64,000 bases of DNA. It comes from Syntrophorhabdales bacterium. GTDB lineage: Bacteria > Desulfobacterota > Syntrophorhabdia > Syntrophorhabdales > WCHB1-27. Of the stretch, positions 14,070 to 30,359 are shown in pieces; within the stretch, counting starts at the first letter, position 1, and each line of letters begins with the position of its first letter. A program made the position numbers and the translations under genes. Location: assembly GCA_035315185.1 (NCBI GenBank), contig DATFYE010000101.1, forward strand, positions 115 to 64,114. Reading direction: 5' to 3'. The notes below the pieces were generated by a model that saw only the letters and a list, made by a program, of their open reading frames with translations, made no database searches and was not told where the DNA came from.

Positions 14070-15425
14070 CTAATGCTTCCCCATTGAGTCGCAAGCCCCT
14101 GCAAATGGTTGTGGATTTCTCAGGCCTTTGAAATAACGTTTACGGGTGGATAGATTGACCCCAGCGTACACTTGGCAACCCAATAGAGTCCTTTTCCATG
14201 GGCTCATGCCAAAGAATCGTTTCAACATTGCGCCCACAGAATAGGCTTGTCTGTTCAAGTGGGCGTAGCCGCTAATGAGCTCGTCAGCAGTCATGCCCTT
14301 GGGTTGAAAGAGGAGTGTATCCGGAGGATGTCCACGGAGCCACCAGTCACGCACAAACAACCTGCCTTCGCTTAAGAGACGCTTATATAACCGTGTTCCC
14401 GGATAAGGAGTGAGAATCCTTAGCTGGACAGCATCCATACGACATCTCATTATAAACTCAAGGGTCTGCTCGAACACATCCTTGTTTTCGTAATCAAATC
14501 CAAAAACAAAGGAGCCGAGTATACCGAAACCTTCGCCATGGAATCGACGCATTGCCTCATAGAAATCGATGCTCAGGTTCTTTATTTTCTTCACCTCATT
14601 CTGTGTTCCTTTCTGTACCGATTCGAATCCGATCAAAAGGCCCATGCACCCTGAACGTCTCATCAACCTGAGCAGCTCCAAATCCTCAGCCAACGACACT
14701 GTTCCCTGTCCCAGCCATAGCCGCCGAAGAGGTATCATTTCAGTAAAAAGTTTTTTAGCTGCATTCCGGTTCAGTCCAAGGGCGTCATCGACGAAGAAGA
14801 GGTGAGGGGAATCAATAGCCTCTATCTCGGCAACCACCTCGTGAACCGGCCTGACTCGATACTGATGCCCCAAGGTCTGGCCGATGGAACAGAATTCGCA
14901 ATCGTACGGACACCCGCGGGATGTCTCGACACCGATAGGAATAGGGGCATAACTATTACCCTGGGTTCCGGGGAAGAGATCTCGTCGTGGCTTCGGCAGG
15001 CCTTTGAGATCTGTCATTTTAGCGGCCCGATATAGTCTTTGCATCTGTTCCGAGGCGGCATCCGATACAAGCTGTGGCCAAATACCCTCCGCTTCTCCCA
15101 CAACGACGGCGTCTGCATGCTCTAAAGCTTCCTCAGGCAACACAGTAGGATGTATTCCTCCCATCACCACTTTCACAGCCTTCCGGCGATAGGTGTCAGC
15201 GATAGCATAGGCTCTAAGCGCAAGGTCGGTCATGACGGTGATACCCACCAAATCCACATCTTGATTCATGTCATCGGGAGCAAAAGCTTCATCGGCAATG
15301 GTTACTGTGTGGCCAGGCGGAGTAAGCGCCGCCAGAAGAGGAAGATTTACCCCTTGTAGCTTGAAAGGGCTGGATAGAGTCTCTTCACGTTGTTCGCGCG
15401 GTGCGATAAGTTTTATTTTCATCAT
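14070..15425 (-). CDS. B12-binding domain radical SAM protein
   Basis: N-terminal B12-binding-like Rossmann region (VDLVGITVMT.., VVMGGIHPT). CxxxCxxC cluster SRGCPYDCEFCS. ATGA overlap with the upstream gene. Paralog of 37594..38967. Confidence 0.9.
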   Translation of the reverse strand: MMKIKLIAPREQREETLSSPFKLQGVNLPLLAALTPPGHTVTIADEAFAPDDMNQDVDLVGITVMTDLALRAYAIADTYRRKAVKVVMGGIHPTVLPEEALEHADAVVVGEAEGIWPQLVSDAASEQMQRLYRAAKMTDLKGLPKPRRDLFPGTQGNSYAPIPIGVETSRGCPYDCEFCSIGQTLGHQYRVRPVHEVVAEIEAIDSPHLFFVDDALGLNRNAAKKLFTEMIPLRRLWLGQGTVSLAEDLELLRLMRRSGCMGLLIGFESVQKGTQNEVKKIKNLSIDFYEAMRRFHGEGFGILGSFVFGFDYENKDVFEQTLEFIMRCRMDAVQLRILTPYPGTRLYKRLLSEGRLFVRDWWLRGHPPDTLLFQPKGMTADELISGYAHLNRQAYSVGAMLKRFFGMSPWKRTLLGCQVYAGVNLSTRKRYFKGLRNPQPFAGACDSMGKH

Positions 15426-17185
15426 TCAGACTTGGGACCATTGCCGACAGGTCTCGAAACGCCCCAGCCCTCATCCGGTGGTGTAGGTATCATCTTCACC
15501 ACGTAATCGCCGGATCCATAAAGAGAGCCACTCACATAGTAACGCTCTCTGTTGTCCTCGGCTGTCAAAGAGAAAATCGATTTGTCGTAAGGACGAACCC
15601 GCAGGGACATCGGTACGTCCATCAGATCGAGGAGGGTCGCGAAATTGTTCAGATGGGAAACCCGGATGCCGGGGCGAATGCCGGCTATGGACCCCTTCTT
15701 GTCATATCGCTCGCCGACCACGAAGAACTCGGGTACGTCGGCGATCACCTTGTCAGGCTTCCCATGGCTATACACTTGCCCACGCTCGGCCAACGTCTGG
15801 CCATGGTCCGATGTGTACAGGATGACATAATTCTGATTTGTCGTACCGGAAACGAACGCCCGGAAGAATTGATCCACCTGAAAGCGAATCCCGTTGTCAT
15901 AGGTATTGACGAGCTTCTCGCGTCCGGTCGGGCTGGGGTCAACGGGTTCCAATGCTTTGGAAACCGGCTTCCAAACCGTAAAGGCCGGATCGTCCGGGTA
16001 TCTATTGCGATACTGGAAATGGAGACCCTTCTTGTTGACGAGAATGAAATAGCCGCCTCTTTCATTCAGAAGACTACTGAGAAAGCGGGCTACACCCACG
16101 TCCTTCGCGGTTTTAAGATCGATGTGACGCTCCACGAAGGACTGGTCGTTCATCCACCGGTCCAGGGATCTCACGCGACCCTTCCGGGCCTTTTTCATAA
16201 GCACAGAAAGGTAGCCATGATCGATGTCGATGTAGATGGTCTCGTAGCCCATTTTCTTTGCGTAATCAAAGAGGGTCGGGTTCTTGAGTGTTCGAAAGGC
16301 GTCGTCGGGAAATGCGTTGTGGCCGGAAACGAGATAGGCATTGCTCAAGTGGGAAAGGGTGCCGGCAGAAACAGAAATGCCGAGATTCTTCAGGCGCCCC
16401 TGGGTCTCGAGGGATTGAAGGAACGGTGTGGTGGCGCGCGGGTATCCGTTCAGACTGAGATTGCTGCCACGAACTGACTCATCGATGATATAGATGATGC
16501 TGTCAAGCGGCCGTTGGGAGGCGTGAAAGGTCGGCAGGTCTTCTCGGGGTCCATGATATTCGCGGAGTGTTTCGAACTCGTAATGAAGTGTTGTACGGAC
16601 GAAGGAGGTCAAAGGATTCACATTGAAATTGCGTTCAGGCACGTGGAGGAAGAGTGCGTAATTGGAAGCGAGGAGGTAGAACACCGGTAGTAGGCTGAGG
16701 GCGAGGGACTTTCGGAAGGTGGACCTGGAGGGGACGAGAATCAGTGTGGAGAGAACGAGTGCGTAAGGGAGAGCATACAAGAAGATGAGCGGATTGACAA
16801 AGCTTAAGATGGCTTCTCCGAGGGTGTCCACGCCGACGGTCAAGACGAGATACAGGTCGGTGCCTGTCATGAACTGGTCCAGCGTCAGCCAATAGGAGAA
16901 TTCGACGACTACAAAGAAAGCAGAAACAAGCAGGGCCACCGCGCGGGGAATTCTGGGGAGGAGAAGGATGAGATAGAAGAGGGCGACCACCTGGAGGAAG
17001 ACCAGCGCGAGGGCGCCCGAGAACTTCATGGTGCCGACGATCGGGAGCAAATGGAGTAGGGCTCGGTAATCGCTGAACCTGAAAATGGGATCAATGAGGA
17101 GAGCGAGCGTCGCCGCAACAAAGGCACTCATCGCACGGGGATAGGGTGCTTGAGTGATGGCGCGAAGGGGATGATACTTTGGCAT
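15422..17185 (-). CDS. membrane-anchored sulfatase-fold transferase (phosphoethanolamine-transferase/LTA-synthase-like)
   Basis: N-terminal polytopic TM region. C-terminal sulfatase-fold motifs IIDESVRGSNLS, SAGT(L)S and YTSDHGQ. The start ATG overlaps the permease stop (TGATG). Confidence 0.7.
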   Translation of the reverse strand: MPKYHPLRAITQAPYPRAMSAFVAATLALLIDPIFRFSDYRALLHLLPIVGTMKFSGALALVFLQVVALFYLILLLPRIPRAVALLVSAFFVVVEFSYWLTLDQFMTGTDLYLVLTVGVDTLGEAILSFVNPLIFLYALPYALVLSTLILVPSRSTFRKSLALSLLPVFYLLASNYALFLHVPERNFNVNPLTSFVRTTLHYEFETLREYHGPREDLPTFHASQRPLDSIIYIIDESVRGSNLSLNGYPRATTPFLQSLETQGRLKNLGISVSAGTLSHLSNAYLVSGHNAFPDDAFRTLKNPTLFDYAKKMGYETIYIDIDHGYLSVLMKKARKGRVRSLDRWMNDQSFVERHIDLKTAKDVGVARFLSSLLNERGGYFILVNKKGLHFQYRNRYPDDPAFTVWKPVSKALEPVDPSPTGREKLVNTYDNGIRFQVDQFFRAFVSGTTNQNYVILYTSDHGQTLAERGQVYSHGKPDKVIADVPEFFVVGERYDKKGSIAGIRPGIRVSHLNNFATLLDLMDVPMSLRVRPYDKSIFSLTAEDNRERYYVSGSLYGSGDYVVKMIPTPPDEGWGVSRPVGNGPKSE

Positions 17186-18300
17186 CACTTGCCCTCTTCC
17201 CATTTGGTGGCTATTATGCCCAGGATAAAGACCACGGCCGCAAAAACCCCTATGATCGCGGAGTATCTCAGCGCGGTCGTGTGGTCGACAAATATCATGG
17301 ATGCCCGGAGCCCCTCGTTCACGTAGTACAGAGGCAGTATCCTGGCGAGCGTCTGCAAGAAGTCCGGCATCATCTCGATGGGGAAGAAGCTCCCCGAGAG
17401 GAACATCATCGGGAACGTGATGGCGTTTGCCGCTGCTGCGGCGCTCTGCGCCTCCTTCACGAAGCGGGTGAGTATCATCCCGATTCCGACGAACGCGAAG
17501 ACGTCAAGCACAATGAACACGGGAAGCCAGGCATTTATCTGCAGGCTAACCTTAAACACGGCGTAGCTCGCCAGCAGCATCGCAATCGTGGATACGACCG
17601 CGAGTATGAACTGGTACAGGATGTTGGACAGTATCCAGTCGGTGCGGGTGATGGGCGTGGTGGATAGCTTCCTGATGACACCCTTCTGCCGCAGCTCCGT
17701 GTTCAAGTTCACCGTGCCGAACAGGCTTGCTGTCATCACCGCCATCGCGATGATGCCGGGGATGAAGAAGTCGATGAACCGGTACTTTTTGGTGAGTATA
17801 GAGCTCTCGGCCGTGTTGATAAACGGGGGCTGTCCGGATACCTCCTGGTTTATCACGGCGAAGACCGAGTTCAGTATTTGCATCTTTGTGGACGCCGAAC
17901 TAGAACTGGGGTCATATACGTAGGTAAGGGTAACTGATGCGCTGGGATCGTCGGTATCGATACGCTGATTGAAGGATCTTTCATAATCTTTGGGAATAAT
18001 GAGGAGAAGGTTGGCTTTGTTCTCTTTGGCGTACTCCGTGGCGTTGACGGCGGGGTCGACCTTGGTTATCTTGAGCTTCCCGTTAAGCTTTAGGGTCTCG
18101 ATGAGATGCGCCGAGGAGTTGGTGTGGTCGAGGTCCTGCACGTAAAGGTCGAAGCTCGCGTTGTCCTGGTCCATGAAAATGCTGCCGAACACGAGTATCA
18201 GGATGATCGGGAACGCAATCGTGAAGAACATTGCGGTCTTCTCGCGGTAGAAACTCTTAATGCTCACGACGAGATTAGCGCCGACCACGCGCAGGTTCAT
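17185..18300 (-). CDS. ABC-2 type transporter permease
   Basis: N-terminal TM segment, a large extracytoplasmic loop, then 5 C-terminal TM segments, as in ABC-2/YhhJ-like permeases. ATGA overlap with the ATPase gene. Confidence 0.8.
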   Translation of the reverse strand: MNLRVVGANLVVSIKSFYREKTAMFFTIAFPIILILVFGSIFMDQDNASFDLYVQDLDHTNSSAHLIETLKLNGKLKITKVDPAVNATEYAKENKANLLLIIPKDYERSFNQRIDTDDPSASVTLTYVYDPSSSSASTKMQILNSVFAVINQEVSGQPPFINTAESSILTKKYRFIDFFIPGIIAMAVMTASLFGTVNLNTELRQKGVIRKLSTTPITRTDWILSNILYQFILAVVSTIAMLLASYAVFKVSLQINAWLPVFIVLDVFAFVGIGMILTRFVKEAQSAAAAANAITFPMMFLSGSFFPIEMMPDFLQTLARILPLYYVNEGLRASMIFVDHTTALRYSAIIGVFAAVVFILGIIATKWEEGK

Positions 18301-19250
18301 TCCGCCTCCCTTCCCCCGGCAGGGCCTTCGCGGAGCGCTTCGCCAGTAAGTTTAAGGAACACCTCTTCGAGGTTGGGCTTGCGAACGTCCAGGGTGAGCA
18401 ACGACGCCCCGGCGTCCTTGATGGTGTTCAGTATCTTCCGTACGTCGTCCGTGTGCTCCACCCTGATCTTGATGTTCTTGTGGTTGTCATGGACCGGCTC
18501 AAAACCCATCTTCCGGACGATTTCAAAGGCTTTTTCATCGACGGACTGTAGCGTGAGGACCAGGTAATTCGCGTTGCTTTCTATGAGCTCCCCCGGGGAA
18601 CCCATCGCGATGATCTTCCCCTTCGAGATGATTGCGACCGTGTCTGCAAGAAGCTCCGCCTCCTCCATGTAGTGCGTGGTGAGAAATATCGTCTTCCCCT
18701 TCTTCTTCAAGCCCAACAGGACTTCCCACACCTCGCGCCTTGCGCGGGGGTCGAGCCCTGTTGTCGGCTCGTCGAGGAACACGACCTCGGGGTCGTTCAC
18801 GAGCGCAATCGCGATTCCGAGGCGCTGCTTCAAGCCACCGGAGAGGTTCTTGTACTGCTCTTTGGTCTTCTCCTTGAGGTTCACGAGCTCTATCAGGCCG
18901 TCGATATCGGTGTTCCTGACGCGGAAAAGTAGCGAGTAGTACTGCAGGGTCTCCCTGACCGTTATCCTGTCGAACGAGCTGAACCCTTGCGGGAGTACGC
19001 CGATGCGGGGGACGATGTCGTACTTCTTCTTCGTGACATCCAGCCCCAGAAGGCTCACTCTTCCCGACGTGGGCGTACGAATCGTATCGATGATCTCGAC
19101 GGTCGTGGTCTTTCCCGCGCCGTTCGGGCCCAGCAGGGCGAACACCTCGCCTTTCCTGACGTTGAATGATATGTCGTTCACCGCCAGCAAATCCCCGTAA
19201 CGCTTCGTCAGTTTCTCGACTTCGATTACGTGTTCAGCTTCTTTCATCAT
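18297..19250 (-). CDS. ABC transporter ATP-binding protein (ABC-2/DrrA-like)
   Basis: Walker A GPNGAGKTT, signature LSGGLKQR, Walker B VVFLDEPTTGLD. Confidence 0.9.
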   Translation of the reverse strand: MMKEAEHVIEVEKLTKRYGDLLAVNDISFNVRKGEVFALLGPNGAGKTTTVEIIDTIRTPTSGRVSLLGLDVTKKKYDIVPRIGVLPQGFSSFDRITVRETLQYYSLLFRVRNTDIDGLIELVNLKEKTKEQYKNLSGGLKQRLGIAIALVNDPEVVFLDEPTTGLDPRARREVWEVLLGLKKKGKTIFLTTHYMEEAELLADTVAIISKGKIIAMGSPGELIESNANYLVLTLQSVDEKAFEIVRKMGFEPVHDNHKNIKIRVEHTDDVRKILNTIKDAGASLLTLDVRKPNLEEVFLKLTGEALREGPAGGREAE

Positions 19251-19253
19251 GGA

Positions 19254-20450
19254 TTAGATTTTGCCTCTATGGGGCGGCGAACAAGGATGTGCTCCTGTCA
19301 GCCCCGGGGCCAGTACATCCGAGGCGGCGAGGGGGGAGACGGCGGGCCAGAACCCGAGGTATCTGAGGATCTTCTCGATCACCGCCTGCTGATGGATAAG
19401 AAAACGGTCAATCACCGGCTGGCGGTGCTTGAATAAAATAAGGCTCGGGATAAACGTCGCACCCAGATGCGCTTTGGTTTTCTCCGCGCCCTGACCCGCG
19501 TGATAGAGAGGGATTTTTTGCTCGACGCAGTAGCGGACATTTTCAAGCCAGGACAACACATAAAGGTTGTATTTGCGGCCGAGCTCGTAATCCATGCAGA
19601 AATATTTATCCACCATCGCTTCTTGTCTTACGACGAGAAGGTTAAAAGCGGCCAGTTCTTCTTGCACAAAATAGAGCGTGTACTCGGCGCCCGGGACTCT
19701 CTCACAGATTTTTTCAAGAAATAAGCGGTTGTGCGCGCCAAACGCCATGGGACCCCGCTCCACTGTTTCCAGATAAAGCTTGTAGATCCTGTCCAGAAAA
19801 GGAGAAATATTGCGACTTCGAATCACCCTGACTTCGTGGAAGGCACGCATTTTGCGACGCAGGTCTTTTCTCGCGGCTCTTGAAAGGCGGCTTAAGTATT
19901 CCTCCAGGCTGTTAAAAGTAATCGGCAGTCGGGCGCAAGGCAGACCTTGAACCCGGTTGAACTTTTTGAATACTTCGCCGGGGAGTTTGCCGTGATGATT
20001 AAAGTTGTAAAACGCCACGATGTCGCTTTTAAGTTCGGTCGCGAGCGTTTGTAAGGCGTCCAGGGCCATTTTCCATGCCGCCTCAAGGGTGCCTGCATCA
20101 ATTTGAGGATCAATCCCGATTTCACTCCATTCCCCTACTAACAGTCCCACGCCTAAAACACGGGGATGAAAAATTGAGGGGATGAGACGGACTGCCGCTT
20201 TCAGCGATGTCTTGATCCATCCCCGCGCAAAAGTGGACAAATCAAAAAGGCTTTCAAACAAAGGCAACAAGAGAATAGGAGCATCATCTTTTGACACCAC
20301 GATACTCCGCAGGTTAAAACCGTCAATACCCGATTCTTGCAACAGAGAAAGAAGAGGGGCAGTACTGGAAGGCTCCGGAAAAAGCCGTCCTAGTTCCGCC
20401 GACGACACTACGTCTAACCGGGGCACGCAATTGCAGGTAAGGTTATTCAT
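19254..20450 (-). CDS. FemAB-like/DUF482-type GNAT-fold acyltransferase
   Basis: C-terminal half (SLEEYLSRLSRAARKDLRRK.., YHAGQGAEKTKAHLGATFIPS) matches the pattern I recall for the DUF482/BioF2-like acetyltransferase family. 8-nt overlap with the PPTase gene. Confidence 0.55.
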   Translation of the reverse strand: MNNLTCNCVPRLDVVSSAELGRLFPEPSSTAPLLSLLQESGIDGFNLRSIVVSKDDAPILLLPLFESLFDLSTFARGWIKTSLKAAVRLIPSIFHPRVLGVGLLVGEWSEIGIDPQIDAGTLEAAWKMALDALQTLATELKSDIVAFYNFNHHGKLPGEVFKKFNRVQGLPCARLPITFNSLEEYLSRLSRAARKDLRRKMRAFHEVRVIRSRNISPFLDRIYKLYLETVERGPMAFGAHNRLFLEKICERVPGAEYTLYFVQEELAAFNLLVVRQEAMVDKYFCMDYELGRKYNLYVLSWLENVRYCVEQKIPLYHAGQGAEKTKAHLGATFIPSLILFKHRQPVIDRFLIHQQAVIEKILRYLGFWPAVSPLAASDVLAPGLTGAHPCSPPHRGKI

Positions 20451-21195: not shown

Positions 21196-21200
21196 AATGC

Positions 21201-24200
21201 TCAGTCCGAAACCCAGTGCATGCGCATAGTATGGACCTGCATGATGGTGCGGCCTTGATCGTCAATCCCTCTGGCGTCCCAGGAGAGGCCTTCCTCGTCC
21301 TGTGCCCGCATGCGGGCCTCCAGGGTTATCTGTTCTCCCACCCGGCATTTTCGCAAAAACCTTATCTCCCCGATTTCCATGGGAATCATAGATCGTCGCT
21401 CCGCTGGGTCCGTTGCGGCGGTGTGGAAGCCGGCCAACTGCAGGAGGGCCTCAAAAAGGTAGGGAGAATACTGGTACCGTGCGTTCCGCGGATTTGCGAA
21501 ATCACTTGTCTCCCGGTAGATGGTTGCGCCCCGTACCACCCCCGGGCCGGCACCGTCAAGGAACTCGATCACGCGATACCTGCCTTCGAGGCCGCTGCGG
21601 TCTTTGTACCATTTAAGCACTTTCTTATGATCCATAGGGCTCGTCCGCAGTTCGTCCGGCCGGACAGGAAAATCAGGGAGCCCCTCCCCCAGATATCCTC
21701 CACCGCCATCCGCGCCATCCGTGCCATCAAGGATGACCTGGCCCTCGCAGTGCGGGATGAAGCGGTCGGTCAACCTCCCGGCGGGGGAGATCTCCTGTGC
21801 TGCGAGAGAGACCTCGCACAATACCTCCCGAAGACCCGTGCCGGCCCGGCGGCAGGAGATCCTGGAAGGCCGTGAAATCCCGGGAGGACATTGGATCATG
21901 TCCATGAGCCGCACCTGGCGAACACCTCGCACCTGCAGGTGGGGATACAGGATCCGGGCGGCTTCCATGAATGTCTCCAGAACCATGGCGGCCGAGACCA
22001 GGGGATGCTTGACGAACCTGAAAGGCCTGTGATCCGCGATCCAAAGATCCTTCTCCAGGGAGAAAGATCTGAAGGCCTCCAGTTCATCCCGACGGATGTC
22101 CAGGCAGGAGATCCTCTCTATCATGGGGAAGTCCCCGGGGCTGAAGGAGACGGTGCCTCCAACCAGTTCTCCACCGGTCGAAGGACGGGTTGTATCATCG
22201 AGCAGTGACGTATTCACGGATGGCAGCCTCCTCATGAACATCACCCACACGTCGTCGGCCGTGGATGCAAAGAGTTCCCGGCAGAACAATCCCGCAAGCT
22301 CATTTACATGGACGTACGCCACGCCCTTCCGCTTCATCAGCTCCCGGACCTCCGGATCCTCGGCCATGCCCGCCCCCTCGACAGGGGAAAGCATCAAGGC
22401 CTTGAACCGGATGGCGCCGTTTTTCCGGCGGAGGGCTCTGAGTAGCGCAGACATCATCCGGTTGGCTGCAGCGTAGTTGGCCTGGCCGGGATTCCCCTGG
22501 ATCGCGGCCGCCGAGGAAAGGCCCACGAAAAACCTCAAGCCGGCCCCCTCCCCAGCCGAGAATAGGTTCCAGGCCCCGAGGAATTTGACGTCCGTGACCG
22601 TGGAGAAATCATCCGGGGTCATTTGGCTCAAAAGGCCATCCCTGAGGACTCCGGCGCCGTGAATAATCCCGTCGATCTTGCCATAGCGGCTTGCCACTTC
22701 ATTCATGATCGCGCGGACTGCCTTGGGGTCAGTCACATCGCAGGTGTGGTACGCTGCGTCGATCCCTGAGGCGTGCAAATCCGCCAAGGTCCGGGCGATC
22801 TCCGATGCCCTGTGGTCGGAAGTGAACCCCTCGGAAGACGAACGTTCGGGGTACGGCTTTGCGGGATTGGTGCCTGGATCGAGAGAAGTCCTCCCCAGGA
22901 AGACCAGGCGGGGCGCGAAAGGCACAAGGCAGCGGGCCAGGTGGGCGCTGATCCCCGTTGCGCCTCCGGACATGACTACAACGTCTCCAGGGCTTATATT
23001 CAGACTTGACGAATCCCCGAAGATCGAGGGGGCTACGTGCGCCTCCGAAGTGAAGACCCTGCCATCACGATGCATGATCTCCACCACGGTGCATCCTCTG
23101 TCCAGAGCATTGCGCAGAGCAACGCCTATGTCGGTATCCCCGTCGATTTCCAATGTGCGAAACTGGACCGATGGGTGTTCCTGCGCCGCGCTCAAAAAAA
23201 GCCCGAGCATCCCTTCCGCCAGCAGCCGAACGGGAGTTTCGCTATCCTCCCTGGAATGAATCAGCACCACAAATTTCTTGGCCGGTGATTGAAGAAACGC
23301 CTTCAGCAGGAGAAAGAGCCCCCTTAGAAGCCGCGAAATATCCACCAAGTTTCTTAACCTCCCCGACGCACCTTGACAGAGGTTGATGACCACCCCGGAA
23401 AGGGACGACAGGCCCGCTATGCTATCTACAGCCCCGGAGGCCCCTTCATCGGTTCGAATGTCATAGCCCTCTTCGCCCGGACCCAAGTTCCCTTGCATGA
23501 ACAGCATTGGAAGCGTATCAACCCCGTAATCCAGTCGGAGGATGTCCCCTGCACTTCTGGCAATCCCGCCATCCCTGTCGGGTGAGAGAAGGAGGACTGA
23601 CTCGCCCGGGCTCAATTCCATGGGAATAGAGGCCGCCAACTTTACAGTGGCCTGGTTGAATACGAGCCGCTTTAGGCTCACCTCATCCTCTGAGGACTTC
23701 AGGATTTCATTCCGCACTTCAGGGTCAACAGCCTCGGTGGCCGGCTGAAGGCTGGTGCCTCCCTGTCTGGCGATAACCTTAGAGATCCTTTGAGCGATGT
23801 CCTTCACGGTACGGACGCCTATAAAGTCCTCTAATTCGATAGTGATCCCGAATTGGCGTTCCGCACCATCCATGATGATGGGGAGCCGGCTCGATCGAAT
23901 GGACAGGTCTCTTCTGAGATCCATATTGGGTTGGATCTCGTCCCTATTGAATCCTGTAGCATCCATGATAATTCGAATGAGCCTCTCCATAAGATCTTGC
24001 TGCTCAGACGCCTCACCTGGGGCAGGGACGAGGGGGGGGGATACAGGGGCAGGGGGACGCGGAGACACTGAGACACGGAGAGGCGGAGCCTCTCCCCCTG
24101 TTGCAGAACCCACAAGCATGGATTCGATAACGGATGATAGGTCGCCTTCTTGGAATGTTGGGTCAAGCTCCTGGCGGATGGCTTCCAGGATGTTGGGCTT

Positions 24201-27200
24201 GAGGGAGCCGCCGAAGGTCTCTATCACGAATCGGTTGATTTCCCTTTGAATGATGCTCTCCACCGGGTTGGAGTCTGCAAGCCCCGGTTCCGACGTTCGT
24301 AACGCGGGTGCCGGGGCGATTCGGTGAGATTCGGGAGTTTTTCTGAATGCAGAGGGGGAAACAAACCTCGGTTCTCCATCAACCTTCAGATGACCTTGAA
24401 CGAAGAGTTGAGCAAGAGCGGTCTTGTAGGTCAGGCCCTCTGTGGAAGAAAGGCACGTCGGGATACATACCGATTCAGGAAGCGTGTCCGCGATGAGATT
24501 GCTCAGTGTTTCGCCGGGGCCCACCTCCACGAAGAGCCGGACTCCGTAGTCGTTCCAAAGGGCCTGGACGTTATTCATCCAGTGGACGGTAGATTCCAGG
24601 TGGGCCATCAGGATTCGCCTGATCTCATCGGGATCTGATGGATACGGTGCCATGATCGTGTTGGAGATGACGGGAATCCGCGGGGAATGAAATGGAATGG
24701 AGGCAATGTACGCCTCGAGCTCATCATGGATGACCTTCATGATAGGGGAGTGGAAGGCCATGCTGACCCGCAAGAGGGTGGCCCGGTGGCCCATTTCCTT
24801 CAATCGTTTGCAGAGATCCTTGACCGCCTCTGTGCCGCCGCTCAGGACGATCTGGTTCGGTGAATTGATATTGCCGATGTGGATATTGTCCCGTCCCCGG
24901 ATCATCTCTTGCAGCAGATCCGAAGGGACGTCCGTGGCCGCCATAACGCCGGGGTCCACGTGCATGCCGGCGGCCTTGTCCATGCAGAGGGCCCGCTTGT
25001 TCACGATTCGAAACCCGTCCTCCGGGGAATAGACACCGGCCATGCACAAGGCGGTCAGCTCGCCCAAGCTATGGCCGGCCATGGCCACAGGATGGATGCC
25101 GAGGGTCGTGAGGTGTCGAGCCATGGCATGTTCCATGGCGAACATGGCAGGCTGCTGCCACCGCGTCTTCTGAAGATTTTCCTCTTGATCGTGGAACAAT
25201 AAGTGAAGGAGGTCGAAGTCCGCTACGGCTGCAGTCCGATCCATCCACTCCCTGATGACGGGAAAGGACTCGTAGAGCTCCCGTCCCATTCCGCTATACT
25301 GTGACCCCTGTCCTGGAAATACAAAGGCGAGCGGTAGGGCCGGCACATCCTTGCGGCTCATGAAAATTCCCTGTTGCGCCAGGGACCTCAATGCCTTGGG
25401 CGAGGCGATTCCGGATTCGGCAAGGAGGGCCGACCCCTCGACGACATTGAGCGCCTCCTCTTCAGATTGCGCCACGACGGCCATCCGGCAGTTACGGCCG
25501 TCCATCTCGGTCCGGAAGAAAGAGACGCCCTGGAGCGTGGGAGTGCCTCCACCCTTCTCTCCAGGGAGACTGGGCCCTCTGCCCGGGGAGACTAGTATGG
25601 TATCCACTTCATCCATGGTCTGCTCCACCTGCACAACGTAGTTGGAACCTCCGAACCCGAAGGCGTTCACCTGAAACCTTCTTGGCTGGTTGTCCCTACC
25701 CCTCCAATCAAGGGGCTCCGGGCCGATGAGGAGACCCGATCCTTCCAGGTCGATTTCCGGGTCTGGATGCATATAGTTGAGGGTGGGAGGAAAAATCCCC
25801 GCCTTCATGGCCGTGACCCCTCGAATGAGGTTATTAATGCCCGAGGCGCCCAGCGTGTGTCCGATCTGGGATTTGAACGAGGTGATCACGGTGCGCCTGG
25901 TGGAATTGAAGACGGACTTCAGGGCACGGGCCTCCTCCAGGTCTCCTTGCCGGGTGCTCGTGGCATGGCATTCCACCAGGTCCACTCCATCGGGCCCATA
26001 GGGTAGCCCTCGGAAAGAGGCGCGGATGGCGATCTCTTGGGTGACACTGGCGGACTCCACCATGCCCAGATGGTTGTTGCTCGCTCCCATGCCGGTGATG
26101 ACGGCGTGGACAGGCGCCCCTCTTGCGCGGGCCAAACTTTCCCGCTCGATGACGATCATTCCCCCGCCTTCGCCGAGGACCATCCCGTCTCTTTCAGCAT
26201 CGAAGGGGCGGGAGGTCTCCTGAGCGGGTCTTTCGTGTCCGGACACCCCGTAAAGTGCGCCCAGGGCGGAGAATTCCACAAAATGCAGGTGTGTGAGATT
26301 TTCCTCGCCCCCTCCGACGATGGCTGCATCGATGATGCCGTTTCGGATCATCTGGACGGCGCTGTGAAGTGCGACCAATGAGGTGGCGCAGGCTGCGGAG
26401 ACGGAATAGCTGGGCCCCATGAACCCATACCGGTTGCAGACGAAGCCGCCCGCTGCGCAGTTGAGTCTGCCCAGGAGCGTGCTGTCGTCCGGGGCCATGC
26501 GTCCGGATTTCACCTCCTGTTCGATAGCGCTCTCCTGATCCGGCGTGAGGTGAATGGCCCTTTTGATGGCGGCAAGGATGTCGTAAAAGTACCCCCTGAC
26601 GATCATGTTGGTGAGGGTCCCCGCCGCCTCTCCCGAGTTCTGGGAGATCAGGACTCCGATTCGCTCGCGTGGGATGTCTGACTCCAGGATGCCGGATGCC
26701 CGGATGGCCCTGTCCGCAAGCCACATGGTCATCCTTGTGGCCACGGTCATGCTCCGGAAATCATGGGGAGGAATCCCGAGTTCACTGCGGGAGGCATGAA
26801 AATCCGCGAAGGCGCCCACCTTGCAGTAGGTCTTGTCCGGGACGTGCAGCCGGGGATCATAAAAACGCTCATGATCCCACCGGGAAGGCGGAACCAATGT
26901 AATACCGCTCTTCATGGCCAAGCTTGCAGCCCACACCTCCTCCGGGCTCTTTCCCAGGGCGTTGATGATGCTCATCCCGGTGATGGCAACCCTTTCGGAA
27001 TCGTCTCTGCGGGGGGCGACTCGTTTCAGCCCACGGCCGACCCCGGAGGACGGAGTTTCCAGGGTTTTCTCGATTGACCCCACAACCGGCTGATACAGCA
27101 GGAGAGGACCTTCGGCAAGCTCGCGGTGAAAGGACTGCAGCGTCTGATCCTTAACGATGAGGCCGGCGCACGCCCCACTCATGAATTGCCCGCGCTCCAG

Positions 27201-29126
27201 ACAGGCCCGCTCATCCAGAGCCACCCCTCCTGGCCTGTCCATACCCCGGGCCGCAGTGAAGAGGCTCCCCGCAGCCATCTCCTCCATGCTCGTCCGGAAA
27301 GAGGCCTCGTCCTGATGACCCGCTGCAAACTCCCTCTCCAGAGACAAAATAGCTGCCACCCTGGGGGTCCTCAAAGCGCGCACCCGAAGCCCGGTGTGCC
27401 GGCCCGAAACGGCCGTTCCCCCCGGCGGCGATTCCAGGACCATCCTCTGATAGAGCGTTGTCAAGGCGCCCGTTTCAACGATCTCCCGGGTGGCCAGGTA
27501 AATGGTGCCCATTTGGATGGCATCCGCGCCCAGCATGGCGGCCAAGAATGCTGTCTCCCGATTAAAGATTCCCCCAGCAAGGATCACCCGACAGTTTTGG
27601 AAAAGGGTGGGCGCGCGCCGCTTGAGATCCAACACCATTTGAGCAAGGGTGAGCGTGCTGTGCTGCCCCACATGGCCGCCGGCCTCATATCCCTCGCAGA
27701 CCACGTACCGGGCGCCGGCTTCCAGGACGAGCTTCAGCAGGGCCTCATCGGGCGCGATATACATGACCGCTATGCCGCACTCTATCAATTCCCTTAAAGA
27801 GGAGAGATCGCCACCCGCGATCACGACAAACCGGGGTCTCTGTTTCTTTATCCAGGCCAGTTGCGTCTCCCTGAAAGGGTTTTCTACCAAAGAGACGAGA
27901 TTCACTGCATAAGGGCGCCCGCCCATGATCTCCGGCAGGCGTCCCAGCCTCCGGTCAAGGGCCTCCGCGTCCATCAGGCCAAGGGCGATAGTGGGCAATC
28001 CACCGGCATCGGCAACTCTTGAGGCAAACTCCGGGACATCGGTGATCCAGGACATGGCGCCCTGGATAAAAGGATAGAGGGTTCCCATCTCTCTGGCTAC
28101 AGGGCTGTCCAGAAAGCAATTCTTTTTTGCCTCGGCCAGGCGGCATACGTTACGAATTTCGTCCATGAAGGCTTTCACGGCCTCCTCGGTTCCGGTCCCG
28201 AAACGCTCAACGAACGACGCGGCAAAGGCAGCTTCCACGCCCAGAGGGATGACCTCGTCCTGACCGAAATGGCTCTCCAGCGGGTGGAGGGCCCTGGCAT
28301 GCACCTGGCTTACGAAGGCGCGGCGGCTTTCCTCCTCGATCTTTGCTCCGTACAGCAAGTCCTCGAACGCCTGGATCTCCCTGAACGCATGCGAGTTTCC
28401 CTTATTAAAAAGGCGACAGGGAACCTCGAGGTCCAGGCCCACCAGATCAGTAGAATCGAGGCGGAGGTTGGAGAGCCGCTGGTGTTGAAACGCATCGATA
28501 GCAACCATATCCGTCAGCCAATGGAGGCTCTCGAAAACGATCCCGGTTGCCCCGGTCGACAGGAATGCCGCTGCCGCCTCAGGGGTGCAGATGCCTCCCC
28601 AGATGAGGACGTCGGGAGGCTTTAAGGCTGTGCGCAGCATTTCCTTGACCATCGAATAGAGAGCCATGGTCGTCTCACCGCTCACGAATCCGGAGGCCTC
28701 GCATCCTTTCAACACGATGCGCCCGACGCCCGAGCTATCCTTTAAAATCACTGCCAGGACATCCATGTCGCCGATGATCGGAAAGCAACGGTTGTTTTCC
28801 GACAATTCCCTCAATCTCTGTAGGAAGCTGGAAGACTCTCCTTGAAAAAACTGGGGGTGGCACTCTATCCAGATGTCGTGGACCCCTGTTTCCTTCAATA
28901 ACTGCCCCAATGATGGATCAAAGAAGGTAGGGACAGAAATCTTGATATCCCTCACGTGGGCGGCAGGGTCAGCCTTTCGTAAGAAAGAACGTAACCCGTC
29001 CACCCCCATAATGGAAAAATCGAAGACGGCTCTGCACCCTGTTCGCTGAGCCATCTGAATCACCGATGGGATGATCTCATCGGGCCGCCAGACGAAACCG
29101 ATAATAGAAACCCGATGCTCAGCCAC
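21201..29126 (-). CDS. iterative type I FAS/PKS-like synthase: NMO-like(degenerate)-ER-KS-AT-ACP-KR-DH
   Basis: 2641-aa ORF with domain motifs in the order listed in the domain features below. No thioesterase or reductase release domain is seen. Confidence 0.95.
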   Translation of the reverse strand: MAEHRVSIIGFVWRPDEIIPSVIQMAQRTGCRAVFDFSIMGVDGLRSFLRKADPAAHVRDIKISVPTFFDPSLGQLLKETGVHDIWIECHPQFFQGESSSFLQRLRELSENNRCFPIIGDMDVLAVILKDSSGVGRIVLKGCEASGFVSGETTMALYSMVKEMLRTALKPPDVLIWGGICTPEAAAAFLSTGATGIVFESLHWLTDMVAIDAFQHQRLSNLRLDSTDLVGLDLEVPCRLFNKGNSHAFREIQAFEDLLYGAKIEEESRRAFVSQVHARALHPLESHFGQDEVIPLGVEAAFAASFVERFGTGTEEAVKAFMDEIRNVCRLAEAKKNCFLDSPVAREMGTLYPFIQGAMSWITDVPEFASRVADAGGLPTIALGLMDAEALDRRLGRLPEIMGGRPYAVNLVSLVENPFRETQLAWIKKQRPRFVVIAGGDLSSLRELIECGIAVMYIAPDEALLKLVLEAGARYVVCEGYEAGGHVGQHSTLTLAQMVLDLKRRAPTLFQNCRVILAGGIFNRETAFLAAMLGADAIQMGTIYLATREIVETGALTTLYQRMVLESPPGGTAVSGRHTGLRVRALRTPRVAAILSLEREFAAGHQDEASFRTSMEEMAAGSLFTAARGMDRPGGVALDERACLERGQFMSGACAGLIVKDQTLQSFHRELAEGPLLLYQPVVGSIEKTLETPSSGVGRGLKRVAPRRDDSERVAITGMSIINALGKSPEEVWAASLAMKSGITLVPPSRWDHERFYDPRLHVPDKTYCKVGAFADFHASRSELGIPPHDFRSMTVATRMTMWLADRAIRASGILESDIPRERIGVLISQNSGEAAGTLTNMIVRGYFYDILAAIKRAIHLTPDQESAIEQEVKSGRMAPDDSTLLGRLNCAAGGFVCNRYGFMGPSYSVSAACATSLVALHSAVQMIRNGIIDAAIVGGGEENLTHLHFVEFSALGALYGVSGHERPAQETSRPFDAERDGMVLGEGGGMIVIERESLARARGAPVHAVITGMGASNNHLGMVESASVTQEIAIRASFRGLPYGPDGVDLVECHATSTRQGDLEEARALKSVFNSTRRTVITSFKSQIGHTLGASGINNLIRGVTAMKAGIFPPTLNYMHPDPEIDLEGSGLLIGPEPLDWRGRDNQPRRFQVNAFGFGGSNYVVQVEQTMDEVDTILVSPGRGPSLPGEKGGGTPTLQGVSFFRTEMDGRNCRMAVVAQSEEEALNVVEGSALLAESGIASPKALRSLAQQGIFMSRKDVPALPLAFVFPGQGSQYSGMGRELYESFPVIREWMDRTAAVADFDLLHLLFHDQEENLQKTRWQQPAMFAMEHAMARHLTTLGIHPVAMAGHSLGELTALCMAGVYSPEDGFRIVNKRALCMDKAAGMHVDPGVMAATDVPSDLLQEMIRGRDNIHIGNINSPNQIVLSGGTEAVKDLCKRLKEMGHRATLLRVSMAFHSPIMKVIHDELEAYIASIPFHSPRIPVISNTIMAPYPSDPDEIRRILMAHLESTVHWMNNVQALWNDYGVRLFVEVGPGETLSNLIADTLPESVCIPTCLSSTEGLTYKTALAQLFVQGHLKVDGEPRFVSPSAFRKTPESHRIAPAPALRTSEPGLADSNPVESIIQREINRFVIETFGGSLKPNILEAIRQELDPTFQEGDLSSVIESMLVGSATGGEAPPLRVSVSPRPPAPVSPPLVPAPGEASEQQDLMERLIRIIMDATGFNRDEIQPNMDLRRDLSIRSSRLPIIMDGAERQFGITIELEDFIGVRTVKDIAQRISKVIARQGGTSLQPATEAVDPEVRNEILKSSEDEVSLKRLVFNQATVKLAASIPMELSPGESVLLLSPDRDGGIARSAGDILRLDYGVDTLPMLFMQGNLGPGEEGYDIRTDEGASGAVDSIAGLSSLSGVVINLCQGASGRLRNLVDISRLLRGLFLLLKAFLQSPAKKFVVLIHSREDSETPVRLLAEGMLGLFLSAAQEHPSVQFRTLEIDGDTDIGVALRNALDRGCTVVEIMHRDGRVFTSEAHVAPSIFGDSSSLNISPGDVVVMSGGATGISAHLARCLVPFAPRLVFLGRTSLDPGTNPAKPYPERSSSEGFTSDHRASEIARTLADLHASGIDAAYHTCDVTDPKAVRAIMNEVASRYGKIDGIIHGAGVLRDGLLSQMTPDDFSTVTDVKFLGAWNLFSAGEGAGLRFFVGLSSAAAIQGNPGQANYAAANRMMSALLRALRRKNGAIRFKALMLSPVEGAGMAEDPEVRELMKRKGVAYVHVNELAGLFCRELFASTADDVWVMFMRRLPSVNTSLLDDTTRPSTGGELVGGTVSFSPGDFPMIERISCLDIRRDELEAFRSFSLEKDLWIADHRPFRFVKHPLVSAAMVLETFMEAARILYPHLQVRGVRQVRLMDMIQCPPGISRPSRISCRRAGTGLREVLCEVSLAAQEISPAGRLTDRFIPHCEGQVILDGTDGADGGGGYLGEGLPDFPVRPDELRTSPMDHKKVLKWYKDRSGLEGRYRVIEFLDGAGPGVVRGATIYRETSDFANPRNARYQYSPYLFEALLQLAGFHTAATDPAERRSMIPMEIGEIRFLRKCRVGEQITLEARMRAQDEEGLSWDARGIDDQGRTIMQVHTMRMHWVSD
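21204..22139 (-). other. synthase domain: PKS-type dehydratase / double hot-dog (aa 2330-2641)
   Basis: LWIADHRPFRFVKHPLVSAAMVLE resembles the N-terminal DH His motif. The C-terminal half is hot-dog-like. Catalytic competence not established. Confidence 0.6.
22377..22994 (-). other. synthase domain: ketoreductase (aa 2045-2250)
   Basis: SGGATGIS NADPH motif. LSSAAAIQGNPGQANYAAAN with the catalytic Tyr. Confidence 0.85.
23772..24005 (-). other. synthase domain: single ACP with atypical Ser motif (aa 1708-1785)
   Basis: DLRRDLSIRSSRLPIIM aligns with the canonical DLGIDSIKRVEI. The putative Ppant Ser is aa 1745. A Pro/Ala-rich linker precedes it. Confidence 0.6.
24447..25337 (-). other. synthase domain: acyltransferase (aa 1264-1560)
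   Basis: FVFPGQGSQ, GHSLGE (aa 1351-1356), MAFHS (malonyl-type xAFH). Confidence 0.85.
25617..26996 (-). other. synthase domain: ketosynthase (aa 711-1170)
   Basis: Active-site Cys in VSAACATS (about aa 913). ECHATST and GHTLGASG His motifs. FGFGGSN. Confidence 0.9.
27087..28109 (-). other. synthase domain: enoyl reductase, PfaD/FabK (nitronate monooxygenase) type (aa 340-680)
   Basis: YPFIQGAMSWI, CEGYEAGGHVG (aa 477-487), ILAGGI, GADAIQMGT. Confidence 0.8.
28137..29126 (-). other. synthase domain: N-terminal degenerate NMO/TIM-barrel-like module (aa 1-330)
   Basis: KGCEASGFVSGETT (aa 140-153) parallels the ER motif CEGYEAGGHVGQHST but lacks the His. Boundaries approximate. Confidence 0.45.
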
Positions 29127-29171: not shown

Positions 29172-30293
29172 TTATAAAGACTTTCTGAATATGCGATATT
29201 TTTTGTACTTTTTTGCGCCAGCTTCCTCTATCAATGAGTTGATGGACTCGTTGTCCTCCAGGGTCCAGCCCAACTCCAGATAATGATATTTCTCTTTTTT
29301 CCTCACAACCTCATAGATGTGGTGGAAGGCTAACATGGGGAGTCCCAGTTGTCGGTACTTCTCCTTGATCCCGAACATCAACAACCGCAATCCGTTGATC
29401 TCCCGCCGATACATGAGGAACTTCAGCACACCCATCAGACCGATCCGCCCGTTGAGACGCTTGAGCAATGGGTTAATGTCAGGAAAGATCACGCAGAACG
29501 CTGCGGGCTCATCCTCATAATAGATGAAGAAAACCATGTCCGGATCCACGAATTCCATTACGTTCTTTTGAATGTCCCGCATCTCATTATCGCTCAGGGG
29601 GACGAAACCCCAGTTACTGGACCAGGCGGCATTATATATCTCTCTGATCAGAGCAAACTCAGAGTCCGGATCCTTCGGACGAGAGACCCTGATGTGAATA
29701 CCTCTTTTTTGGGTGATCCGCTCAGCAAGACGATCCATCCACTCGGGAAGCCGGTAATCGCCATCTATCAAAAAGGCCGCCAGGTCCTTTTCTTTGGTGA
29801 AACCGCACGATTCTACCAACCCTGGGTAGTACGGCGGGTTGTAAGCCATCATCAAGGCAGGCGGATAATTGAATCCCTCAATGAGCAGGCCCACCTCGTA
29901 ATTGGTGGACGGGTTGAGCGGGCCTCTCAGGAAGGTCATCCCCTTCTGGCGAACCCACGTCTCCACGGAAGAGAAGAGGGCCGCCGCGGCCTCCGGATCG
30001 TCAGCACATTCGAAGAATCCCCAAATGCCCATCTTTTCGCTGTGAAACTGGTTATAATGGCGGTCTATAATGCCTACAATCCTTCCCACCGTCTCCGAAC
30101 CGCGTCGGGCCAGAAAGAGGATACGCTCGGAAAACTCCCAGAAAGGGTGTCTGCTGGAGTCCAGCATCCGGCGAACCTCCTTCTTAAGGGGAGGAACCCA
30201 GTTGGGGTACTCAGCATAGATCTTCCATGGGAGGTCAATGAAGTCCTTTAATGCCGAGCCGCCTTCGACAGCAATAATCTCTATGCTGGCCAT
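29172..30293 (-). CDS. GNAT-fold acyltransferase-like protein (family not named)
   Basis: 373 aa. The C-terminal segment GIKEKYRQLGLPMLAFHHIY..LELGWTLEDN looks like a GNAT acyl-CoA-binding core. The N-terminal half also looks GNAT-like. 45 nt upstream of the synthase gene. Confidence 0.5.
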   Translation of the reverse strand: MASIEIIAVEGGSALKDFIDLPWKIYAEYPNWVPPLKKEVRRMLDSSRHPFWEFSERILFLARRGSETVGRIVGIIDRHYNQFHSEKMGIWGFFECADDPEAAAALFSSVETWVRQKGMTFLRGPLNPSTNYEVGLLIEGFNYPPALMMAYNPPYYPGLVESCGFTKEKDLAAFLIDGDYRLPEWMDRLAERITQKRGIHIRVSRPKDPDSEFALIREIYNAAWSSNWGFVPLSDNEMRDIQKNVMEFVDPDMVFFIYYEDEPAAFCVIFPDINPLLKRLNGRIGLMGVLKFLMYRREINGLRLLMFGIKEKYRQLGLPMLAFHHIYEVVRKKEKYHYLELGWTLEDNESINSLIEEAGAKKYKKYRIFRKSL

Positions 30294-30330
30294 AATCGTT
30301 CCCTTCGAGAGGTTACCACCGAAACATTAC

Positions 30331-30359
30331 AAATTAGCATGTACAGAGTCTTGACGCAA
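30331..30359 (-). promoter_or_regulatory. sigma70-like promoter candidate for the synthase operon
   Basis: On the minus strand: TTGCGT (30359-30354), 17 nt, TAATTT (30336-30331), about 38 nt upstream of the GNAT-like start. Confidence 0.35.

Follow-up and report, generated by a model that had tools for sequence, protein, structure and literature searches.

What would an uncultured bacterium make with a fully reducing synthase of 2641 aa that carries no release domain, and where would the finished chain go? This question is raised by a stretch of 64,000 nucleotides (the window) from a Syntrophorhabdales metagenome-assembled genome (MAG), in which eight closely packed genes run along the minus strand from 30293 down to 14070 (open reading frame (ORF) map). 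Our analyses suggest that this operon probably serves a bacterial sphingolipid pathway of the ceramide type, supplying its N-acyl arm along with functions for the head group and for export. The evidence consists of the homology of two proteins, P8 in the operon and an Spt-like enzyme elsewhere in the window, to enzymes of Caulobacter crescentus, of domain content and intact active sites, and of synteny conserved among related loci, 68 of which were found in a scan of one genome per species, all of them from MAGs. A sequence-only reading of the same DNA had presented the pathway as unconnected to known biology. This view can no longer be held, as P8 is a homolog of the Caulobacter ceramide synthase bCerS and an Spt module lies 13-25 kb away in the window. 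Because both are present, the operon appears to be one arm of a sphingolipid pathway rather than a self-contained system.

Layout of the operon

The eight genes, from the first to the last, are as follows.

29172-30293, minus strand: P8, predicted tandem-GNAT N-acyltransferase of the bCerS family, 373 aa, the first gene of the operon (homology to Caulobacter bCerS)
21201-29126, minus strand: iterative type I synthase, 2641 aa, GTG start, in the order pseudo-enoylreductase (pseudo-ER), enoylreductase (ER), ketosynthase (KS), acyltransferase (AT), acyl carrier protein (ACP), ketoreductase (KR) and dehydratase (DH) (Pfam/NCBIfam)
20443-21195, minus strand: Sfp-type 4'-phosphopantetheinyl transferase (PPTase; ACPS, 43 bits)
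19254-20450, minus strand: FemAB_like/Acetyltransf_6-fold protein, accessory (weak Pfam matches, E 3e-5 to 3e-3, including ATE_C)
18297-19250, minus strand: ABC ATPase, DrrA/NodI-like (TIGR01188, 275 bits)
17185-18300, minus strand: ABC-2 permease (ABC2_membrane_3, 129 bits)
15422-17203 (ATG at 17187 for a 1-nt overlap), minus strand: EptA/MCR-type membrane phosphoethanolamine-transferase homolog, accessory (Sulfatase/EptA-like)
14070-15425, minus strand: B12-binding radical SAM enzyme, accessory (B12-binding and Radical_SAM)

Successive genes of the operon are either separated by 45, 5 and 3 nt or overlap by 8, 4, 1 (or 19) and 4 nt, in agreement with the figures first given, in which the third overlap is 1 nt. 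The sequence-only reading had counted nine genes, while its own list names eight, as does the ORF map, and it had placed the end of the operon at 30359, where there is no start codon and the translation runs into a stop; the ATG is at 30293. Its domain calls were all confirmed with Pfam and NCBIfam, including those of the operon's own PPTase, the two acyltransferase-fold proteins, the EptA-type transferase, the B12-dependent radical SAM enzyme and the DrrAB-like pair, and its proposal of a lipid synthesis-plus-export operon built around the synthase is supported by domain content and conserved gene order.

The first gene encodes a bCerS-family protein

To obtain the Caulobacter bCerS reference, the published cloning primers (PMC11087976 supplement) were used as an exact DNA pattern in a metagenome collection, the bCerS ORF being bracketed by primers EK1199 and EK1200/1313. 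Two metagenome contigs carried both bcerS primers exactly, 1152 nt apart, and the encoded protein is 384 aa long. On another contig, a published spt primer was found 8 kb upstream of the bCerS ORF with LptF/G-like genes adjoining, and a Caulobacter region with LptF/G-like genes beside bcerS has been described (PMC11324152). P8 aligned end to end with Caulobacter bCerS (34% identity over 380 aa; BLASTP E values of 1e-70 and 9e-69), and the latter matched the profile of the P8 family with a probability of 100% and an E value of 6e-83 (hhalign). On these end-to-end BLASTP and profile matches, P8 is, by sequence, a member of the bCerS family.

No Pfam model matched P8 above threshold, and its family is very large, with 7783 representatives at 50% clustering. 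An AlphaFold2 (AF2) model built on 76 diverse family representatives (pLDDT 95.5) predicts a soluble tandem GNAT acyltransferase fold with two GNAT domains, the motif RQLGLP in the C-terminal one, and no transmembrane segments; its PDB matches in Foldseek are likewise tandem GNATs (5kgh, 2wpw, 7q3a and MshD). The activity predicted for P8 is N-acylation of a sphingoid base. The idea that P8 and the FemAB-like protein are paralogs was rejected, as sequence similarity between them is undetectable.

The genomic surroundings of the family point in the same direction. The bCerS gene is reported to cluster often with spt and cerR (PMC11334938), and the neighborhoods of P8-family members with Spt and a short-chain dehydrogenase/reductase (SDR) match this published clustering. 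Among nine distant family members checked in their contigs, four lie directly beside an Spt-like gene, two of these with an epimerase-type SDR, and two of the nine adjoin a type I synthase or polyketide synthase (PKS). Spt and an epimerase-type reductase are found nearby in L073, L075, L077, L078 and the Desulfuromonadales loci. In the window, both Spt and the SDR are present, but P8 is some 23 kb distant from them and on the opposite strand. Those bCerS homologs that adjoin the synthase form a subgroup of their own, sharing 42-76% identity with one another versus 33-41% with the Spt-adjacent ones. Also within this subgroup is the distant locus L074 (1-4881), where a PPTase, a bCerS-like gene and three glycosyltransferases come after a synthase-like C-terminal KR-DH part (33% identical). 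The Desulfuromonadales loci hold both kinds, in the order SDR, Spt, bCerS', PAP2, bCerS, lipoprotein and synthase.

Two unusual relatives were also observed. In L079 (2408-9523), a bCerS-like gene and the gene of a canonical highly reducing type I PKS are arranged convergently. The 784-aa protein P0241 (L080:6001-8355) has two stretches that match a bCerS-like query, the better one at residues 410-782, and resembles a tandem duplication or fusion; its surroundings are of the type II secretion/pilus ATPase kind and include no lipid genes.

An Spt module in the same window

The Spt module of the window (4176-10952) contains the following genes.

4176-5156, plus strand: NAD-dependent epimerase-family SDR, candidate 3-keto reductase (Epimerase, 142 bits), recurrent beside the Spt-like gene
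5176-6357 (longest ORF from 5125), plus strand: Spt-like alpha-oxoamine synthase, 46% identical to Caulobacter Spt
6410-7261, plus strand: PAP2_3/PAP2_C membrane protein, candidate head-group transferase (PAP2_C match)
7267-8157, minus strand: second PAP2-family membrane protein
7962-8534, minus strand: DUF4833 secreted protein, a conserved neighbor
8689-9021, plus strand: stand-alone ACP (LGLDSLD; PP-binding, 50 bits), conserved beside the KS in 10 loci
9040-10278, plus strand: FabF-like KS (TIGR03150, 503.5 bits, above the cut-off of 493.75)
10287-10952, plus strand: metallo-beta-lactamase (MBL)-fold, glyoxalase II-like hydrolase, possible thioesterase, recurrent with the KS in related loci

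When compared with the Caulobacter Spt encoded on the same contig as bCerS, the alpha-oxoamine synthase of the window gave an E value of 9e-114. It scored 432 bits against Spt structures in the PDB (3a2b/8guh), versus 282 bits for KBL and 278 bits for cysteate acyltransferase; although its 553 bits against NF047600 are below the cut-off of 640, no other model came within 100 bits of this score. The recovered Caulobacter-type contigs did not include the cerR gene, and the SDR was placed at the level of the epimerase/dehydratase family only.

The module is not peculiar to the window. Clustering of ORFs from the related loci returned a recurrent alpha-oxoamine synthase, SDR, PAP2, KS with ACP, MBL and DUF4833, all of which are also found in the window, and PAP2 genes recur between Spt/bCerS' and bCerS. 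In five loci of the Desulfobulbaceae type (L042:17445-20960, minus strand, L007, L051, L053 and L061), the stand-alone Spt is replaced by a fusion of about 1170 aa that combines a fatty-acyl-AMP ligase, an ACP and an alpha-oxoamine synthase, accompanied by a SPASM radical SAM gene and a glycosyltransferase-like gene.

Conservation of the core across phyla

The related loci are distributed over Desulfuromonadales/Geobacteraceae, Desulfobulbaceae, Syntrophorhabdales, Syntrophaceae, Desulfomonilia and Deferrisomatales, and also over Thermodesulfovibrionales/Nitrospirota, Aminicenantes and Acidobacteriota. Gene order, whose conservation in related genomes had been named as decisive for the operon, is conserved, and chance is far from explaining an arrangement that dozens of loci in different phyla share. 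Counting for each gene the loci with enough flank, P8 adjoins the synthase in 44/49, the PPTase occurs in 43/44, and the ABC ATPase and the ABC-2 permease each occur in 40/44, while the FemAB-like gene occurs in 21/40, the EptA-like gene in 17/40 and the radical SAM gene in 22/40. From these counts, P8, the synthase, the PPTase and the ABC-2 pair constitute the core, and the FemAB-like, EptA-like and radical SAM genes are accessory.

Among the 30 loci with full flanks, at least 16 have an Spt-like gene no more than 10 kb away from the synthase, for which the chance level is, as a rough estimate, a few per cent. The head-group genes around the fixed core differ by lineage (EptA-like, PAP2 or glycosyltransferases), and such variation of head-group enzymes around a fixed core fits a membrane-lipid anchor.

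Upstream of the operon, the gene that had been offered as its possible tenth member is present in 1 of 30 loci and is better described as a lineage-specific neighbor.

30377-30943, minus strand: lipoprotein Cys-phosphatase (CX5R), 83 nt upstream of P8

A promoter scan gave a single strong promoter-like site, which lies upstream of this phosphatase gene, and in a terminator scan terminator-like sites were no more frequent than expected by chance.

The synthase gene also stands out in composition. The impression by eye that it is GC-rich was borne out by computation, with a G + C fraction of 0.591 (0.70 at third codon positions, GC3) versus 0.526 for the window. GC3 is also raised in the ABC genes (0.78-0.79), the P8 gene (0.66) and the EptA-like gene (0.66). 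Compared with the far flank, the synthase is higher in G + C content at 36 of 37 related loci, with a mean excess of 6.5 points, and its content keeps to a narrow band across the related loci, the host flanks ranging from 0.445 to 0.67. This pattern fits either a horizontally spreading cassette or a strong compositional constraint.

Some further features of the loci deserve mention. In 31 loci (L002-L066, e.g., L017:9057-9902), the gene of a 281-aa predicted lipoprotein without a Pfam match separates bCerS from the synthase; it is absent from the window. The entire cluster is present twice in the MAG MFD10007.bin.2.36, on separate contigs (L004 and L038), the two copies being 87-89% identical to the synthase of the window. 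In many loci from long-read MAGs, the synthase is split into several ORFs, probably through frameshift errors.

Domain organization of the synthase

The synthase is divided into the following domains.

28089-29126, minus strand (residues 1-346): pseudo-ER, a degenerate ER duplicate with EASGF for EAGGH
27027-28088, minus strand (residues 347-700): flavin mononucleotide (FMN)-type ER of the FabK/PfaD type (NMO, 82 bits; FabK model, 144 bits)
25617-27026, minus strand (residues 701-1170): KS with Cys913, His1054 and His1090
24447-25346, minus strand (residues 1261-1560): AT with GHSLG and the malonyl-type motif MAFHS
23757-24011, minus strand (residues 1706-1790): single ACP (PP-binding match), probable phosphopantetheine site Ser1742
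22347-23756, minus strand (residues 1791-2260): KR, structural and catalytic halves, Tyr2218
21204-22346, minus strand (residues 2261-2641): PKS-type double-hotdog DH (PS-DH, PKS_DH_N) with His2366 and ExxxQ at 2559-2563

This organization agrees with the single-chain, fully reducing synthase without a release domain that had been proposed, and the Pfam/NCBIfam scan detected no thioesterase, reductase or condensation domain in it. The six domains originally assigned were an incomplete set, as residues 1-346 make up a seventh, degenerate ER-like domain at the N-terminus. This pseudo-ER aligns with the ER domain over 204 columns with an E value of 4e-4 (hhalign) and weakly matches NMO (E 0.03), and with the change from EAGGH to EASGF it has lost the histidine. 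Its mean identity across the synthase family is 78% and nearly equals that of the catalytic domains; because it is conserved almost as they are, the pseudo-ER is likely to be functional. To our knowledge, a dead ER duplicate at the N-terminus of a megasynthase has not been described.

The active sites of the remaining domains appear intact. In 80 homologs, the KS Cys/His/His, the AT motifs GHSLG and MAFHS, the region of the ACP serine, the KR Tyr, the DH His and ExxxQ, and the ER motif EAGGH are 90-100% conserved, the last of these being invariant. The solved structure closest to the ER is FabK (PDB 2z6i, 105 bits). The family comprises more than 1000 proteins at E<1e-50, and its best 120 members share 71-86% identity with the synthase across about 2600 residues and belong to several classes and phyla. 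An NCBI protein that is 100% identical to the synthase carries only the label "SDR family oxidoreductase".

Proposed pathway and alternative explanations

In the pathway that we propose, in which the direction of acyl flow, the acceptor, the head group, the substrate of the exporter and the chain length are predicted, the PPTase would turn the single ACP of the synthase into its holo form. The synthase would then act iteratively, its AT loading malonyl units, its KS condensing them, and its KR, DH and FabK-type ER reducing the chain fully in each round, while the ER copy at the N-terminus, itself catalytically dead, is probably a structural partner of the live ER. As there is no thioesterase, the chain would stay bound to the ACP until the bCerS homolog moves it onto the amino group of a sphingoid base. 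To supply this base, the nearby Spt-like enzyme would use an amino acid together with an acyl chain held on the module's own ACP (with the FabF-like KS and the MBL hydrolase), and the SDR would reduce its 3-keto group. The DrrAB-like ABC-2 pair would carry the lipid out of the inner leaflet or the inner membrane, and the EptA-like enzyme, where present, or a PAP2 enzyme would attach a phospho head group on the periplasmic side. In those loci that have them, the B12-dependent radical SAM enzyme may modify the chain and the FemAB-like protein may add another acyl or aminoacyl group.

Several points weigh against this pathway. Every locus is derived from a MAG, and the support comes from sequence and predicted structure. 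About one third of the loci, mainly those of Nitrospirota/Thermodesulfovibrionales and Aminicenantes, have no Spt within 10 kb, and the Spt of the window itself is separated from P8 by the distance and strand noted above. The Desulfuromonadales loci contain two bCerS paralogs, and as the base has one amine, the simple model leaves the second unexplained. Direct transfer of the chain from the megasynthase ACP to P8 is an assumption, and characterized bCerS has reportedly been assayed with acyl-CoA. In addition, a few members of the bCerS family are found in non-sphingolipid contexts, and the family may therefore acylate other amines, while the candidacy of the SDR as the reductase follows from a family-level match and not from a comparison with CerR.

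The direction of acyl flow might also be the reverse, that is, the synthase chain could feed the Spt-like enzyme to yield the long-chain base, as with SgaA/SgaB, and P8 would then N-acylate it with an ordinary fatty acyl donor. A monomodular iterative PKS and an alpha-oxoamine synthase are known to yield sphinganines together (PMC12134224), and Spt-like genes are often near the synthase. Yet the invariant partner of the synthase is bCerS (44/49 loci) and not Spt (16/30), and the synthase-adjacent bCerS homologs are a separate subgroup, both of which argue that the synthase makes the amide-linked chain. Moreover, the synthase would not be needed for the base, because Spt has an acyl supply of its own, either the ACP and KS (in the window and 10 loci) or the acyl-AMP ligase-ACP fusion (in five loci). 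Thus, we consider the supply of the base by the synthase unlikely. A product without a sphingoid base, such as an N-acylated amino acid, amino sugar or other amine, with the nearness of Spt being secondary, would account for the third of the loci that lack Spt within 10 kb and for those bCerS-family members that sit without Spt near an acyl-AMP ligase, a methyltransferase and glycosyltransferases, and tandem GNATs do acylate amines of many kinds. Nevertheless, P8 matches a proven ceramide synthase from one end to the other, four of the nine sampled distant family members adjoin an Spt-like gene and the window holds a full Spt/SDR set, which makes such an aminolipid still harder to favor.

Two further explanations were considered. 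The high identity of the synthase across classes and phyla, and its possession of all the activities of the saturated fatty acid cycle, could indicate a housekeeping type I fatty acid synthase (FAS) surrounded by general membrane-biogenesis genes, and the same idea was raised in 2011 for a Pfa-like "Type S" cluster of Desulfobacterium autotrophicum (PMC3098273), although whether that cluster is the same as the present one could not be checked. However, the synthase is tied to a ceramide-synthase homolog, an exporter and an Sfp-type PPTase of its own, the same window encodes a FabF scoring above the equivalog cut-off, and the cluster is patchy among taxa, has a near-constant G + C content unlike that of the host flanks and occurs twice in one MAG (L004 and L038). 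The housekeeping FAS I was accordingly considered and rejected as highly improbable. A secondary lipid of a known Pfa-like type (polyunsaturated fatty acid (PUFA), heterocyst-glycolipid-like, alkylresorcinol or olefin) without any amide-lipid link seems equally remote. The KS-AT-ACP-KR-DH part of the synthase resembles PfaA and the ER, although fused to it, is an FMN-dependent enzyme resembling PfaD/FabK, but the score of 427 bits against TIGR02813 (PfaA) is far under the cut-off of 1010, there is one PP-binding domain, and the cluster has no KS-chain length factor (CLF) partner, FabA-type DH pair, tandem ACPs, type III PKS or OleABCD. Membership in the PUFA, hgl, ars and ole systems was rejected, as their defining parts are missing.

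A more specific version of the sphingolipid pathway can also be imagined. We know of no biosynthetic enzyme for the C32-C39 amide chains of the deoxyceramides of euxinic waters. These 1-deoxyceramide-type sphingolipids carry C32-C39 amide chains that are often odd-numbered or functionalized (PMC11334938). The synthase might be a very-long-chain FAS that delivers such chains through a specialized bCerS, with the radical SAM enzyme adding extra carbons or functional groups, the ABC-2 pair exporting ceramide, and the FemAB-like protein acting as an aminoacyl-ceramide (e.g., lysyl-ceramide) synthase. We regard this full scenario as doubtful, and the link of the synthase to the euxinic-water chains is speculative.

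Head-group, export and accessory proteins

The EptA-like protein aligns through residues 17-531 with full-length MCR-1 and through residues 24-535 with EptA, and it keeps the motifs IDESVR, AGT, SDHG and YSHG (Glu, Thr, Asp-His and His). It thus has the EptA/MCR architecture, a membrane domain and a sulfatase fold with the Thr nucleophile and the metal ligands, while its score of 94 bits against NF028537, under the cut-off of 500, marks it as a distant relative. A reasonable guess from these features is that the enzyme would add phosphoethanolamine to ceramide.

In the exporter, an ATPase gene is followed by an ABC-2 permease gene as in DrrAB, the two overlapping by 4 nt, and the TIGR01188 score of the ATPase is narrowly under the cut-off of 312. 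Ceramide flippases or transporters were stated to be unidentified in Caulobacter (PMC11087976), and Lpt paralogs and a flippase were later proposed for ceramide transport there (PMC11324152).

The radical SAM protein matches PF02310 (44 bits), PF04055 (52 bits) and DUF4070, and its CPYDCEFC fits CxxxCxxC, in keeping with a class B enzyme. It reached no functional subfamily cut-off in NCBIfam, and a PDB sequence search returned distant matches only. In a divergent clade of the synthase, a distant B12-dependent radical SAM gene comes next after the PPTase, which suggests that the enzyme acts on the synthase product. The FemAB-like protein had no match in the PDB sequence search, and its fold-level Pfam matches, which include aminoacyl-tRNA transferases, are weak.

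Comparison with characterized systems

The Caulobacter pathway comprises Spt (CC_1162), bCerS (CC_1154) and CerR (CC_1164) (PMC11087976, PMC11324152). The window resembles it in having bCerS and Spt homologs, an epimerase-family SDR beside Spt, a dedicated ACP in the Spt module and head-group genes nearby, with a lipid presumably bound for the outer membrane. In contrast to the Caulobacter region, which has none of the three, the operon led by bCerS here also encodes a 2641-aa iterative synthase, a PPTase and an ABC-2 exporter; the place of the acyl-ACP synthetase (AasR) is taken by a FabF-like KS together with an MBL hydrolase; and the head-group candidates are EptA-like and PAP2 proteins rather than phosphoglycerate genes. 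Caulobacter CerR is reported to be periplasmic, whereas the SDR of the window has no signal peptide by eye. Unlike Caulobacter, the hosts here are anaerobes.

SgaAB has been called the first PKS cluster shown to act in sphingolipid synthesis (PMC12134224). By description, the present system is like SgaA/SgaB/SgaC of Pseudomonas fluorescens MYb115, where an iterative, monomodular type I synthase is likewise joined by an alpha-oxoamine synthase and a reductase. In Sga, the PKS feeds an adjacent alpha-oxoamine synthase to give the base, whereas the synthase here appears to be coupled to an N-acyltransferase. The adjacency seen in SgaAB is not found in the window, where some 15 kb and a change of strand separate Spt from the synthase, and in the related loci the neighbor of the synthase is bCerS. 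No exporter, EptA-like or radical SAM genes are described for Sga (PMC12134224).

The synthase shares with PfaA/PfaD and the Pfa-like "secondary lipid synthases" (PMC3098273) the order KS-AT-ACP-KR-DH, a C-terminal DH of the PKS type, an FMN-type FabK-like ER and an Sfp-type PPTase. It differs in that the ER and the PfaA-like parts are fused behind a dead ER and in that there is one ACP rather than 3-9. Neither the cluster nor the remaining annotated ORFs in the window include a PfaB, a PfaC-type KS-CLF or a FabA-type DH pair, and because PfaB and PfaC are absent, there is no visible route to cis double bonds. As in ArsA/ArsD of Azotobacter and in HglE-type systems, an iterative synthase without a thioesterase would pass an ACP-bound long chain directly onward (PMC3098273 and general knowledge), but the receiver here would be a tandem-GNAT N-acyltransferase instead of a type III PKS or a reductase, and the domain order is different. 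The exporter and the EptA-like protein have the same folds and motifs as DrrAB/NodIJ and EptA/MCR-1, respectively, with all scores under the curated cut-offs. Ceramide as an acceptor for the EptA family would be new, if true.

The sequence-only reading had recognized the combination as no characterized pathway, and in the literature searched we likewise found no cluster with such content; nor did the literature on the synthase in sulfate reducers, Syntrophorhabdus or Geobacter, or in connection with sphingolipids, yield anything relevant. Taken together, the operon most likely belongs to a bacterial sphingolipid system by way of bCerS and Spt and is new in the wiring of a megasynthase to a ceramide synthase and an exporter.

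Neighboring genes in the window

Some other genes of the window are noted here for their possible relevance to lipids or to the genes above. Two more B12-binding radical SAM genes are encoded on the plus strand within a few kb of the cluster (34724-36229 and 37546-38967), bringing the total of the window to three, none of which reaches a subfamily cut-off. A cardiolipin-synthase-like phospholipase D gene (31113-32543, plus strand; TIGR04265, 287 bits, cut-off 290) is divergent from the phosphatase gene, and a copy with 88% identity lies by the cluster in seven loci according to ORF clustering, or in 4/30 under a stricter count.

A group of genes for envelope-lipid transport is also close by, in which an AsmA-like protein (41849-43291) is followed by MlaE, an MlaF-like ATPase and MlaD (45283-47896). 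The MlaF-like ATPase has an additional C-terminal domain with a weak GGDEF match, and homologs of MlaE and the MlaF-like protein adjoin the bCerS gene in Thermodesulfovibrionales loci (L006, L013 and L019). Directly past the Mla genes, a 904-aa fusion of an ADP-forming acetyl-CoA synthetase-like part and a GNAT domain (Pat-type architecture) is encoded at 47919-50633 on the plus strand.

An ORF of the fatty-acid-desaturase family occurs at 62225-62938 on the plus strand (PF00487, 40 bits), in a lineage that is presumably strictly anaerobic. At 11924-12376 on the plus strand, a small secreted protein with long threonine runs (TTTTTTTTTTPEKK...) is encoded, and the ORF on the opposite strand is equally long.

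Implications for bacterial sphingolipids

Bacterial sphingolipids were long considered rare, and Spt, bCerS and CerR have been defined only recently. Environmental lipidomics has found anoxic settings to be rich in structurally odd ceramides whose makers and enzymes are unattributed. The gene set described here is widespread and strongly conserved in uncultured anaerobes of the Desulfobacterota, Nitrospirota, Acidobacteriota and Aminicenantes, and it offers a lead to a mechanism by which a megasynthase may be wired to a ceramide synthase. The layout of the megasynthase, in which a dead and a live ER are fused to a PfaA-like module, is previously undescribed. The ABC-2 pair is a candidate for the poorly defined step of ceramide transport and would, if true, be the first identified bacterial ceramide exporter. 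Our analyses also suggest that surveys based on Spt, bCerS and CerR alone may overlook a separate biosynthetic arm of these lipids.

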